Virus record (IMG/VR): IMGVR_UViG_3300009509_000016
Direction: 5' to 3' (one strand)
DNA: 64,000 nucleotides
From: a virus
A model generated the notes under the pieces. The model did no database searches. It was not told the origin of the DNA and saw nothing but the letters and a program-made list of their open reading frames with translations. A program made the position numbers and the translations under genes. Shown in pieces: positions 59,234-61,915 of this stretch (position 1 is its first letter; each line of letters begins with the position of its first letter).

Positions 59234-60337
59234 ATGACACAGCAAGGACAAGGGGATATTCTAGCACAAGGTGATGGTTATTTAGAACCGACAGGTGTTG
59301 ATTTTTCATATAAAACATGGAGAAATTATCCAGTTAGTGACGAGACCATGGATGAAAAATCCAAGAAAGGTGCAGAGACAGAAGCAATTTCAAAACCAAC
59401 TGTAACCATTACATCAGAAACATCGGCAACAAGTGCAGACAATTTCCAATTTGTTGGTGAGGTAAGTGATACACATGCACAGATGCACAGTCTTACCTAT
59501 GAATTGACAGGTGGTAACACTGACAGTGGAACTATCATTAGTGGAAATTTTCTTAGAAGAGTAAGTCCACCTTTTGGTGGTAGATGGAGATTGCCTGTTT
59601 CCCCCATATCTGTAGGTCAAACAGGCTTATGGATAAGAGGTACAAATGTAAGAGGAAAAGTAGGTCCATGGACATTCGGAACTATTACTAGAACCCCAAC
59701 TGCTGGTCCTGTAGTACCATGTAGTTGTGCTGTTTATGAAGATCTGTTAACTGCTGCTGGTGTTAACTGGTTACAAGCTGGAGATGCAGATATGGCACAA
59801 TTCACACCTAACGGATGGGACCATTATAACAATCCTGGAGCACCTGCATCAGTTTATGTTAATGGTTTATTTGATATAGGTGGTGATTTTGAAGTTTGTT
59901 GTGAAGTTACTATAGATTTACAGGGTGTGGCACCAACTACAAACACTGCTTTTGAATTTAATATGGTAGAGGGTGTTAAAGGTGGTGGAATTGCCTATCT
60001 TAGAATTATTGGTGATGGTGCTGGTGGAATGCAATTCAATCTTGCAGGAAACCCTGTTTGGAATAAAGGAAATTTCGGACCAGTATTTCCAAATGTAGCA
60101 TATCTTCTAAGATTTACTAGAACAGGAACCACACTAAAAGCATGGGTATGGAATGCTATTACAGAACAATGGGAATGGGATGGAGACCCTGCTGGTGCAA
60201 CAGATACTACTAACACATGGGATGTAGACCCATCTCCTGGCTTTCTATGGGCAGATTTTAATCCTGGTGTTGGAGACTTTTTCCAAGGTAAAGTAAGTAG
60301 TTTCTGTATTAATGTAGGTACTAAAATTGGTCCGTAA
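59234..60337 (+). CDS. Lectin/ConA-like adhesin-type protein, copy 1
   Basis: About 170-aa N-terminal module nearly identical to 60559 gene (ISKPTVTITSETSATSADNFQFVGEV...), divergent C-terminal beta domain. Confidence 0.7.
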   Translation: MTQQGQGDILAQGDGYLEPTGVDFSYKTWRNYPVSDETMDEKSKKGAETEAISKPTVTITSETSATSADNFQFVGEVSDTHAQMHSLTYELTGGNTDSGTIISGNFLRRVSPPFGGRWRLPVSPISVGQTGLWIRGTNVRGKVGPWTFGTITRTPTAGPVVPCSCAVYEDLLTAAGVNWLQAGDADMAQFTPNGWDHYNNPGAPASVYVNGLFDIGGDFEVCCEVTIDLQGVAPTTNTAFEFNMVEGVKGGGIAYLRIIGDGAGGMQFNLAGNPVWNKGNFGPVFPNVAYLLRFTRTGTTLKAWVWNAITEQWEWDGDPAGATDTTNTWDVDPSPGFLWADFNPGVGDFFQGKVSSFCINVGTKIGP

Positions 60338-60537
60338 TGTATAAATGTTCCATATATGATGATAGACCACAAGTTTGTAAAGATTTTCCAACAAGACATA
60401 TAAACTTTAAGTACTATCCATCATGTACCTATTGGTTTGAAGGTATGGAAAGAAAGGGAGAATGTAGCAGATGTGGGGAGTGTTGTAAGTTAACAAAAAT
60501 GTACAAGGGTACTTGCCCTTATTTGAAAAAGCAATAA
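60337..60537 (+). CDS. Small YkgJ/FliB-family CxxCxxCC protein (permuted motif order)
   Basis: CSIYDDRPQVCKDFP ... CSRCGECC; ATG overlaps upstream stop. Confidence 0.5.
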   Translation: MYKCSIYDDRPQVCKDFPTRHINFKYYPSCTYWFEGMERKGECSRCGECCKLTKMYKGTCPYLKKQ

Positions 60538-60558
60538 TAACGTATTTGGAGGAAATAA

Positions 60559-61704
60559 ATGGCACAACAAGGACAAGGGGATATTTTAGCACAAGCTGAT
60601 GGATATGTAGAGCCAGCAGGTGCAGATTTTTCTTATAAGACCTGGAGAAACTATCCTGTCAGTGATGAAACTATGGATGAAAAATCCAAGAAAGGTGCTG
60701 ATACAGAAGCTATATCATCACCAGTTGTAACTATTACATCAGAAACTTCTGCAACAAGTGCTGATAACTTTCAGTTTGTTGGTAGAGTGGAAGATACATA
60801 TGCACAGATGCAAAGTCTCACATATGAATTAACAGGTGGTAACACTGATAGTGGCCTGATAACAAGTGGAAACTTCCTTAGAAGAGTAAGTCCACCTTTT
60901 GGAGGAAGCTGGAGATTGCCTGTTTCACCTTTAGCTGTAGGTCAAACAGGTTTGTTTATTAGGGGTACAAATGTAAGAGGAAGAAAAGGTCCATGGACAT
61001 TCGGAACCATTACTAGAACACCAACTGCTGCCCCACATACAGGACCATATTTTGATGAGTTTGATGATAATACTCTTGCTCCATGGTGGACTGTACTCGT
61101 AGGTGTCAGACCAACTCCAGGTGGTGGAACACCTTGTACTGATGCTGGTATCGTATTTGAAACAGCAGCACCAGTGGGATATGTACAGCTACAACAAATT
61201 GCATCCATTAATTCATGTTCAGCAATTTATCAAAATTTTGATGGAAATTTTGATGCATATGTAAAGCTTTCGGTAGGGGTTGGTCCTGGCCATGGAGGTG
61301 GAACAGAAGGTGCATATGGTGTTTTTGAAATGACTTCCCTAATTGACCCATTATGGTGTATAGCTATTTGGTATACATGGTCTCAGGGAGATGGTAAGTT
61401 TGAACTCTATAACTGGACAAGAACTGCTGCTAACTTAGTAAGTAGTACTTATTTTGGTGGTGATTATGCTTCAGGGGATATCTGGCTAAGATTGAGATTT
61501 AGAGCAGGTGATGCTCAACCATTGCTCTATAGCAGTGTAACCGATGGTGCTGTTTGGGATGATAGAAGAGGTGCTGCAAGCAAAAACGATTTAAGTATAG
61601 TAGACTTTTCCCAAATGAGATTGGGTCTATATGGTGTTAATGCTGATAGTCTAAACACAGCAGCAATCATCTACCATTTCCTAAGAGATGGTTCAGGAAT
61701 CTAA
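60559..61704 (+). CDS. Lectin/ConA-like adhesin-type protein, copy 2
   Basis: N-terminal module paralogous to 59234; C-terminal YFDEFDDNTLAPWW LamG-like start. Confidence 0.7.
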   Translation: MAQQGQGDILAQADGYVEPAGADFSYKTWRNYPVSDETMDEKSKKGADTEAISSPVVTITSETSATSADNFQFVGRVEDTYAQMQSLTYELTGGNTDSGLITSGNFLRRVSPPFGGSWRLPVSPLAVGQTGLFIRGTNVRGRKGPWTFGTITRTPTAAPHTGPYFDEFDDNTLAPWWTVLVGVRPTPGGGTPCTDAGIVFETAAPVGYVQLQQIASINSCSAIYQNFDGNFDAYVKLSVGVGPGHGGGTEGAYGVFEMTSLIDPLWCIAIWYTWSQGDGKFELYNWTRTAANLVSSTYFGGDYASGDIWLRLRFRAGDAQPLLYSSVTDGAVWDDRRGAASKNDLSIVDFSQMRLGLYGVNADSLNTAAIIYHFLRDGSGI

Positions 61705-61915
61705 TATGAAATGTATAAGATGTGGGTTATGTTGTTACCTGCATAGAGAATTTAGGAAAGATAGAAGAGTTTTCTCTGATCCATGTGAGCATCTAACTTT
61801 TGTATTTGAAATTCCAACATGTGCTATTTATGAAAATAGACCTCAACAATGCAAAGATTATTTTTGTAGAGATTATCCAGAGCCTATAGGTGGAAGCAGA
61901 GTACATGAAGCTTAA
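61688..61915 (+). CDS. Small YkgJ/FliB-family CxxCxxCC protein
   Basis: CIRCGLCC ... CEHLT ... CAIYENRPQQCKDYF. Confidence 0.55.
   Translation: MVQESNMKCIRCGLCCYLHREFRKDRRVFSDPCEHLTFVFEIPTCAIYENRPQQCKDYFCRDYPEPIGGSRVHEA

Follow-up and report, generated by a model that had tools for sequence, protein, structure and literature searches.

Receptor-binding proteins that come with a dedicated helper are a known theme. In the cassettes of phage T4 (gp37/gp38 with gp57A) and of lambda and Mu (Stf-Tfa), a conserved N-terminal attachment part carries a hypervariable distal domain, a small gene located immediately downstream is specific for this distal domain and is exchanged together with it, and the locus is a hotspot of recombination or divergence between near-identical phages. 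The same features recur in the locus addressed here, which is located at positions 59234 to 62282 of the IMG/VR record IMGVR_UViG_3300009509_000016 and comprises two tandem genes for large proteins of predicted lectin-like fold, lectin1 and lectin2, and the small partner genes following them. The complete analyzed stretch of 64,000 nucleotides, subsequently designated the window, derives from a very distant T4-like myovirus. In contrast to the T4 and lambda/Mu cassettes, no fibrous trimeric shaft is predicted and the models rather suggest monomeric beads on a string. Moreover, the partners are unrelated to gp38 and Tfa, one of them being an eight-cysteine mini-protein with a putative metal cluster, and there is no sequence similarity to GenBank phages.

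A further group of comparable systems comprises T4 Hoc, T5 pb10 and the 'evolved' distal tail protein (Dit) of Lactobacillus phage J-1 with its carbohydrate-binding module CBM2. These proteins combine a short capsid- or tail-binding part with an exposed immunoglobulin (Ig)-like or carbohydrate-binding beta-sandwich, an architecture that is resembled by the large proteins studied here. However, sequence homology is absent, and the anchor at the present locus is an N-terminal peptide of ~45 aa, which is found in at least three paralogs of one genome. To our knowledge, none of Hoc, pb10 and J-1 Dit has a dedicated partner gene.

The small cysteine proteins of the locus resemble the PF03692 family (YkgJ/YcgN), with which they share the CxxCxxCC and C.IY..RP..C motifs and the number of eight cysteines; the family's hidden Markov model accepts the un-permuted sequence. 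They differ from PF03692 in that the family of the 66-aa protein is circularly permuted and in that both small open reading frames (ORFs) remain below the gathering score as they stand. In FliB, the cysteine motif holds a [4Fe-4S] cluster for methylation of surface lysines of flagellin, and PF03692 has been called 'similar' to the FliB motif CX4CX3CC (PMC8598068). The phage protein DpdM, which is homologous to YkgJ, methylates preQ1 in DNA, and its conserved cysteines have been modelled as two metal pockets, one of four cysteines (bioRxiv 10.1101/2023.04.13.536721). DpdM shows that phages make use of the YkgJ-type fold (bioRxiv 10.1101/2023.04.13.536721). Unlike the genes of FliB and DpdM, the small cysteine genes studied here are linked to a lectin gene and not to flagellin or DNA-modification genes. 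A precedent for an iron-sulfur (Fe-S) cluster on the phage adsorption apparatus is provided by the lambda tail tip protein gpL, which carries a cysteine-ligated [4Fe-4S] cluster of unknown role (PMC10721106). In gpL, the cluster resides within a structural protein, whereas the putative metal-binding cysteine cluster addressed here belongs to a separate small protein and has no sequence relationship to gpL.

An earlier sequence-only reading of the window had named the two lectin-like genes, a third relative and the small cysteine genes, and all of these ORFs are present. The 125-aa gene, which is the third gene of the second cassette, had been absent from it. The genes under study, all on the plus strand, are the following:

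59234-60337, plus strand: lectin1, 367 aa (ORF call, AlphaFold2/Foldseek, full-length homologs P0002-P0005).
59234-59377, plus strand: residues 1-48 of lectin1, N-terminal docking-type module (N-module).
59378-59707, plus strand: residues ~49-158 of lectin1, predicted short helix and Ig/fibronectin type III (FN3)-like beta-sandwich (spacer).
59708-60334, plus strand: residues ~159-367 of lectin1, predicted type-1 concanavalin A (ConA)-like jelly-roll (type-1 head) with conserved cysteines in PCSC (163 and 165), EVC (221) and FCIN.
60337-60537, plus strand: 66-aa circularly permuted CxxCxxCC (PF03692-type) protein with eight cysteines, partner of the type-1 head.
60559-61704, plus strand: lectin2, 381 aa, with N-module and predicted Ig-like spacer in residues 1-159 (full-length homologs P0006, P0007 and P0009).
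61688-61915, plus strand: 75-aa CxxCxxCC protein of canonical motif order with eight cysteines, between lectin2 and the 125-aa gene (alternative start at 61706).
61905-62282, plus strand: 125-aa protein, conserved partner of type-2 lectins, with the motif NPT.KEYF...DGYVRG.YD...D.WIW.G..LH.
3497-4270, plus strand: third N-module protein, 257 aa with eight cysteines, composed of a ~45-aa N-module and a different beta-rich C-terminal domain, without Ig spacer.

The N-termini of lectin1 and lectin2 are identical at 138 of 159 residues (87%; BLASTP E=9e-98). At the DNA level, homology extends from a common ribosome-binding site, GGAGGAAATAA, at -12 to about +470, i.e. near codon 157, with ~84% identity. 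The synonymous divergence (dS) of the shared part is 0.67 and the ratio of nonsynonymous to synonymous divergence (dN/dS) is 0.12, indicating that the duplication is old rather than recent and that it has been under purifying selection. Thus, the shared N-terminal module described previously exists, but with ~159 aa, 87% identity and an old origin (dS 0.67) it is not the 'almost identical' module of ~170 aa that had been claimed. The C-terminal domains lack any pairwise similarity detectable by BLASTP, in agreement with their presumed divergence. In lectin2, the type-2 ConA-like domain begins at the motif FDEFDD..L.PWW. Type-1 heads carry 4-6 cysteines at conserved positions, and type-2 heads 0-4, none of which is conserved. 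Of the type-1 cysteines, C165 and the one in FCIN are invariant (7/7), while C163 and C221 are present in 6/7 and were jointly lost in P0014. Full-length relatives come from metagenomes only and are 50-64% identical for the lectin1 type (P0002-P0005) and 37-47% identical for the lectin2 type (P0006, P0007 and P0009). Scans of IMG/VR for the lectins and the 66-aa cysteine protein returned a single contig, which belongs to the L001 lineage.

The gene at 3497-4270 had been regarded as a third, more distant copy. This applies to residues ~2-46, which are shared with the lectins (52-53% identity, E=5e-13), but not to the module as a whole. On one side of the gene is an M15 endolysin gene and on the other are holin/spanin-like genes, and a small partner gene is lacking; the neighbor at 2961-3485 matches an endolysin PHROG. 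As an alternative, assignment of its C-terminal domain to the type-1 or type-2 heads was considered and rejected, as hhalign aligned only an 18-residue start motif with a probability below 10%.

Sequence searches with lectin1, lectin2 and the third copy gave no match in Pfam, PHROG, NCBIfam or PDB, and a profile built from the lectin alignment found nothing among PDB sequences. Structure prediction was more informative. The AlphaFold2 model of lectin1, calculated with nine family members as input, reached a mean predicted local distance difference test score (pLDDT) of 75.5. In this model, residues 1-37 are disordered (pLDDT <50) and followed by a helix (39-52), an Ig/FN3-like sandwich (56-153) and a jelly-roll (168-366). 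Foldseek matched the jelly-roll to ConA-like lectins and glucanases in the PDB (E=2e-6 to 1e-4, probability 1.0, target template modelling (TM) score up to 0.60), including VIP36, ERGIC-53, Emp46/47, legume lectins such as peanut lectin, and the C-terminal sandwich of glycoside hydrolase family 43 (GH43). The CBM2 of J-1 Dit (5ly8) and a mycobacteriophage central fibre were matched as well. Among the predicted viral structures of BFVD, the matches were mainly minor tail proteins of actinophages and LamG/ConA-like structural proteins. The model of lectin2, which is of moderate confidence, likewise matched legume lectins, the GH43 sandwich, 3mep, 4xdq and a phage baseplate chain in the PDB (target TM score up to 0.66). 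It yields the same class of fold as lectin1, and 5ly8 is a direct match in fold. Taken together, AlphaFold2 and Foldseek agree on a conserved N-module combined with divergent, lectin-like beta domains, as the sequence-only reading had it, and support the designation 'lectin-like' for both C-terminal domains at the level of the predicted fold. Sugar binding by these modelled heads appears plausible.

To place the N-module, a profile of 54 positions was used for an exhaustive search of 1.84 billion representative proteins. At E<=1e-3 it detected 27 clusters, of which 16 reached E<=1e-10, and in nearly all of the 27 the module occupies the extreme N-terminus. The C-terminal parts are very diverse: they comprise heads resembling type 1 or type 2, with or without spacer, and several unrelated beta-rich domains. 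A cysteine pair (EPC ... EC) co-occurs in the members lacking a spacer. The N-module makes up the entire product of some ORFs of 51-67 aa, and other proteins carry it in tandem, which suggests that the docking peptide is able to function by itself or in a bivalent form. The only match in bacterial genomes was a spurious one; it concerned a protein from a Desulfovibrionaceae metagenome-assembled genome that by inspection is a TctC-like solute-binding protein, and it provides no clue to a prophage or host. As far as literature and database searches reached, neither the N-module family nor its permuted mini CxxCxxCC partner has been described. Two side observations concern the unusual members: in L029, a stand-alone N-module ORF of 65 aa (4982-5179) comes right after the permuted cysteine gene, and P0010-P0012 consist of two tandem N-modules.

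In the window, each of the tandem lectin copies is followed by a small eight-cysteine ORF, as previously noted. The start codon of the 66-aa ORF overlaps the stop codon of lectin1 (TAATG, 60335-60339), the 75-aa ORF overlaps lectin2 by 17 nt, and the 125-aa ORF in turn overlaps the 75-aa ORF by 11 nt. Synteny in related phages revealed which of these linkages are general. The permuted cysteine gene follows a type-1 head in 6/6 loci (window, L001/L020, L014, L021, L022 and L029), which are distributed over three slots; in L029 it does so although the type-1 head lacks the Ig spacer. This bears out the linkage of small gene and lectin gene. A type-2 head, on the other hand, is followed by a gene for a protein of 101-125 aa in 3/3 loci. 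In L017 and L018, this gene encodes a 101- or 105-aa homolog of the 125-aa protein, comes directly after the type-2 lectin without any cysteine protein, and uses the same overlapping MVQ start and the same 17-nt overlap with the lectin gene. The former assumption of one cysteine protein for each adhesin copy is therefore not upheld. The robust pairings are type-1 head with permuted cysteine protein and type-2 head with 101-125-aa protein, and the 75-aa canonical gene is an extra that was encountered solely in this phage lineage.

The permuted motif order of the 66-aa ORF, which the sequence-only reading had pointed out, was confirmed by un-permutation against PF03692 and by hhalign. In the 66-aa protein, the RP..C half comes first (CSIYDDRPQVC ... 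CSRCGECC ... C), while the 75-aa protein displays the canonical order (CIRCGLCC ... CAIYENRPQQC). Both contain exactly eight cysteines, contributed by CxxCxxCC, C.[YH]L, C.IY..RP..C and one more. The gathering score of PF03692 in Pfam is 23 bits. The 66-aa ORF scores 17.8 bits as it is, 28.4 bits when un-permuted in silico and 33.4 bits as a head-to-tail dimer; its L014 ortholog exceeds the gathering score even without such treatment (23.6 bits). In hhalign (probability 96.6%, E=6.6e-10), the doubled alignment of six permuted orthologs runs without interruption across the junction and covers residues 8-58 of the 75-aa protein, whereas the single-copy alignment of the permuted family covers only 14 columns of it. 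Because the doubled alignment crosses the junction, swapping of the halves lifts the PF03692 score and the eight cysteines correspond, the 66-aa protein qualifies by sequence as a genuine circular permutant, with new termini between the C.YL and C.IY elements. All eight cysteines of the permuted protein are invariant in 6 loci (64-72 aa), and comparison of the 66-aa genes of window and L001 yielded a dN/dS of 0.22. The 75-aa ORF scores 15.6-16.0 bits with PF03692 and gave a weak match to the YcgN family in NCBIfam. Hence, the proposed PF03692 relationship stands as membership in the superfamily, as supported by motifs and hhalign, but not as a match above the gathering score for the ORFs as they stand (17.8 and 15.6 versus 23 bits). 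Profiles of the 66-aa and 125-aa families found nothing significant in the PDB, and a scan of IMG/VR returned no relative for the 75-aa protein.

In related phages, the cassettes occupy three slots. Slot A, used in the window, L001 and L014, is bounded by a gp4-like gene and by a 266-aa gene whose partial PHROG match is scaffold-like. Slot B is located between the M15 endolysin gene and the holin/spanin-like genes and harbors the third copy in the window; in L029, it contains an N-module protein with type-1 head followed by the permuted cysteine protein. Slot C belongs to the structural module and is used in L017, L018, L021, L022 and L028, where the cassette is inserted exactly between homologs of the window genes 45314-45496 and 45036-45245 (both minus strand; the flanks are also given as 45496-46017 and 45036-45245, minus strand). 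In the window, this slot is empty at ~45246-45313 (minus strand).

Slot A proved to be hypervariable when the window was compared with L001, a phage from SMTZ1 sediment. The four nearest flanking proteins (135, 137 and 266 aa upstream, the gp4-like protein downstream) are 98-100% identical, and the products of the 400-aa, 69-aa and 97-aa genes 96-100% identical. Lectin1, in contrast, is only 55% identical overall, with a gradient from N-module (90%) to spacer (65%) and head (42%), and the 66-aa cysteine protein is 85% identical. Nucleotide identity starts at 99-100%, drops to 54-67% within the head and recovers behind it. The suspected location in a hypervariable region is thus borne out: the locus is a divergence hotspot, with 42% identity in the head versus 98-100% in most flanking proteins. 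Within the cassette, dS amounts to 0.4-0.6, as compared to ~0-1% nucleotide difference in the adjacent genes, which argues for replacement by exchange with a diverged donor. The slot-B copy at 3497-4270 is identical to its homolog in an SMTZ1 phage (L027) at 256/257 residues; therefore, variability is specific to slot A. A second variable gene was observed amid neighbors of 98-100% identity: the 176-aa gene at 56859-57389 is 63% identical to its counterpart in L001 (7379-8155, 258 aa).

Gain and loss of whole cassettes can also be traced. L001 lacks the region corresponding to window positions 60548-62165, which takes in lectin2, the 75-aa gene and, from its 5' end, two-thirds of the 125-aa gene. 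GTATTT occurs at each of the two breakpoints in the window, next to the L001 junction. From the 3' end of the 125-aa gene, 117 nt survive in L001/L020 with 96% identity. This remnant indicates that the two-cassette state is ancestral to the pair of window and L001 and that L001 underwent a deletion. With its cassettes gained, lost and exchanged between three slots, the locus is a clean case from nature.

On balance, we consider it somewhat more likely than not that the locus is a hotspot of exchangeable cassettes for late-expressed, surface-displayed glycan-binding proteins, in which each head type has its cognate partner. In our model, the ~45-aa N-terminal peptide, disordered on its own, would serve as common docking module for one particular site on the phage particle, and the large proteins would be built from this docking peptide, an optional Ig-like spacer and a variable ConA-like lectin head. 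They would most likely be displayed on the virion surface, where the heads may bind glycans of the host surface. In favor of a late and structural role are the T4-like capsid, portal and terminase genes of the phage, the gp4-like head completion gene directly behind the cassette, the TATAAATA elements ahead of the block, and the predominance of minor tail and structural proteins among the BFVD matches. Each head type moves together with a small partner gene of its own, which is translationally coupled to it, and the partners may act as head-specific assembly or maturation factors or as stoichiometric subunits, similar to T4 gp38/gp57A or lambda Tfa. The permuted eight-cysteine partner of 64-72 aa probably carries two tetra-cysteine metal sites; its cysteine-ligated metal center could help to fold, metallate or oxidize the cysteine-bearing type-1 head, or the protein might stay bound as a subunit. 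With two tandem cassettes and the N-module protein of the lysis region, the phage of the window could thus combine several glycan specificities with one docking system.

This model would be relevant in more than one respect. YkgJ/CxxCxxCC proteins are widespread and almost entirely uncharacterized, and the strict genetic linkage of a minimal, permuted member to one head type provides a concrete candidate for a partner or substrate that can be tested. The N-module marks out a family of modular phage proteins not annotated so far, in which one docking peptide is combined with many binding heads, and it may be of use for understanding, and possibly engineering, the host range of uncultured sediment phages.

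Several observations weigh against the model. The AlphaFold2 model of lectin2 has a pLDDT of 62.6 and is therefore only of moderate confidence, and neither lectin model contains a coiled coil, a beta-helix or a trimeric fibre shaft, i.e. the proteins are not classical tail fibres. Searches of 50,697 GenBank phages at the DNA and protein level with the cassette, lectin1 and the third copy gave no match. Identity of the cysteine partner does not follow identity of the type-1 head (r=0.12; 15 non-independent pairs), so a signal of co-evolution is lacking, and P0014 keeps its cysteine partner in spite of lacking two of the four conserved head cysteines. The 75-aa gene is seen only in contigs of this phage lineage and thus has no comparative support outside of it. 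Finally, the presence of an N-module protein in the lysis cassette of two phages (window and L029) could point to a role outside the virion.

The latter possibility can be phrased more broadly: the large proteins might be envelope-acting accessory subunits of lysis, or decoy lectins or lectins for superinfection exclusion, and the N-module would dock to a lysis protein or a host protein. Apart from the position of N-module genes directly between the M15 endolysin and holin/spanin-like genes in window and L029, this would fit the occurrence of stand-alone N-module ORFs and the endolysin itself, which displays a single PHROG match (aa 13-149) without a visible separate cell-wall-binding domain. 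However, the two other slots lie among head and structural genes, variability is focused in the lectin head, as is typical for host-range determinants, and the copy in the lysis slot is precisely the invariable one (256/257). Furthermore, proximity to lysis genes is also seen for adhesins, since the T4 adhesin genes adjoin the holin gene (g37-g38-t). We therefore consider a role outside the virion unlikely. A location inside the head is conceivable as well: the N-module would then be a capsid-targeting sequence, and the locus a hyperplastic one like the ip loci of T-even phages, whose internal proteins are encoded by hypervariable loci and share an N-terminal leader. In line with this, the plus-strand block is rich in small charged proteins with recurrent N-terminal leaders, it adjoins the gp4-like gene and a gene with a partial PHROG head-scaffolding match (N-terminal 80 aa), and paralogs of the 125-aa partner carry a leader resembling the T4 capsid-targeting sequence. 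However, the N-module (GD.LAQ.D.Y.EP.G.DF...TW.N) differs from the leaders M[KR]F.[KR]YL.E and ..ILE.ID..L.E, its hydrophobic positions are not conserved across the family, and Ig-like and ConA-like domains are typical of surface-exposed phage proteins, which renders an internal location highly improbable.

For the partner genes, the sequence-only reading had favored a dedicated modifying enzyme for each adhesin copy, i.e. FliB-like Fe-S/S-adenosylmethionine enzymes acting on the adjacent adhesin, for instance by lysine methylation. Membership in the CxxCxxCC superfamily and the tight and specific linkage of the small gene to one head type are compatible with such a role, and both characterized proteins found with such a cysteine motif, FliB and DpdM, are methyltransferases (PMC8598068; bioRxiv 10.1101/2023.04.13.536721). 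With their 64-75 aa, however, the small proteins look too small to accommodate the tunnel and the two grooves of the DpdM model, which are the proposed sites for DNA and methyl donor (bioRxiv 10.1101/2023.04.13.536721). The FliB spacing, CX4CX3CC, has been called no more than 'similar' to PF03692 (PMC8598068), and CX2CX2CC is found here. No model of FliB or any other methylase matched in NCBIfam (E<=1) or Pfam, and in other phages type-2 heads occur without any cysteine protein. FliB itself is a much larger enzyme of about 400 aa, with its cysteine motif in the N-terminal part. Thus, the size of 64-75 aa and the lack of a FliB match leave the idea of one modifying enzyme per adhesin copy without direct support, and we regard it as quite unlikely. 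As little sequence is left outside the eight-cysteine core, we favor a role in folding, metallation or oxidation of the head, or as bound subunit, over FliB-like catalysis. A more specific version, which we consider possible though doubtful, is that the permuted 64-72-aa protein represents a minimal module with two metal sites (Fe-S or Zn) that has one specific class of ConA-like heads either as its obligate complex partner or as its substrate. Its action could consist in modification as by FliB, in insertion of a metal, or in thiol/disulfide chemistry at the conserved cysteine pairs. If true, a maturation system that depends on a metal cluster and is dedicated to a phage receptor-binding domain would be seen here for the first time, and a mini YkgJ-type protein would gain its first assigned partner. 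The 75-aa ORF, in turn, might simply be a recent and possibly non-functional insertion, in which case a second relation of one cysteine protein per adhesin would not exist. It is found only in contigs of this same phage, relatives carry the 125-aa homolog directly after the type-2 lectin with the same overlapping MVQ start, its PF03692 score is below the gathering score, and no IMG/VR relative was detected. On the other hand, the ORF is intact, has all eight cysteines at the family positions, overlaps both neighbors in the manner of an operon and aligns to the permuted family over 42 columns (hhalign); we therefore give the insertion scenario only limited credence.

A larger PF03692 member had also been recognized in the window, and it does exceed the gathering score (30.1 versus 23 bits). 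It is unlinked to the cassette:

24942-25685, plus strand: 247-aa PF03692 member with CxxxCxxCC spacing, in the DNA-metabolism region.

This gene directly follows a DNA polymerase gene and a 184-aa ORF (24391-24945), which by inspection looks like a dCMP deaminase. The CxxxCxxCC spacing of the 247-aa protein is the same as in the phage preQ1-DNA methylase DpdM. A DpdM-like identity of the 247-aa protein was considered; a DUF3109 match was not obtained, and no queuosine-pathway family was detected in the ten neighboring replication-region genes scanned.

The T4-like nature of the phage is apparent from genes for a gp23-like capsid protein (36078-37295, minus strand), the portal protein (40104-41708, minus strand) and the large terminase (28889-30496, minus strand), and from the gp4-like head completion gene with TnsA fold (62270-62734, plus strand) immediately downstream of the cassette. 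Among cultured phages, the top match of the capsid protein is Pelagibacter phage HTVC008M (37%). The cassette is part of a tightly packed plus-strand block, whose first gene starts at 55456 and is preceded by a candidate promoter:

55387-55394, plus strand: TATAAATA, element resembling a T4 late promoter, identified by pattern search 62 nt before the gene start at 55456.

A second copy of TATAAATA, the sequence of the T4 late promoter, is present at 55254. The pattern search returned 14 occurrences as compared to 7.1 expected, and a scan for sigma-70 promoters and terminators gave no signal above the shuffled expectation. The first gene of the block (55456-56658), which encodes a lysine-rich protein of 400 aa that is 100% conserved in L001, contains an 84-nt (28-aa) tandem repeat of 4.9 copies at 55762-56174, including ...YPGSGKEHFHPDKQDTKIPTKDKGTVKS....

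Two leader-like motifs recur in the window. M[KR]F.[KR][YF]L.E starts five genes (2435, 7730, 8170 and 8643, plus strand; 40104, minus strand; e.g. MKFLRYLTE and MRFKKFLTE), one of which comes right after the portal gene. It is reminiscent of the T4 capsid-targeting sequence MKTYQEFIAE with its L-x-E site for the prohead protease, and by this analogy the genes may encode a set of head-internal or injected proteins. Three of these genes are tandem paralogs of the 125-aa partner (7730-8170, 8170-8646 and 8643-~9100; 26-30% identity), each with an MRFLKYLTE-type leader, and are located just upstream of genes for an ART-PolyVal ADP-ribosyltransferase (9959-10456) and a CCA-adding enzyme/polyA polymerase (10453-11868). 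The second motif, M..[IL]L[ED].ID..L.E, is found at the N-termini encoded at 5937, 55456, 58008, 62731, 63035 and 63460, and internally in 53923-54633 (minus strand) and 58421-59221; it heads many small charged proteins of the plus-strand block around the cassette. We considered the N-module as a variant of this '..ILEQID..LE' leader, as VLEQIDKVLEPT at 58008 resembles ILAQGDGYLEPT, and rejected the idea since the members of the N-module family do not share the hydrophobic positions. The L/I-x-E closing the second motif could be a protease site. Finally, the gene at 523-2181 upstream of the lysis block encodes a 552-aa protein, and the gene at the equivalent position of L029 (539 aa, upstream of the endolysin gene) carries the Pfam domain TROVE (Ro60-like); considered along with the gene of the CCA-adding enzyme, this may be a hint that the phage has auxiliary functions related to RNA.

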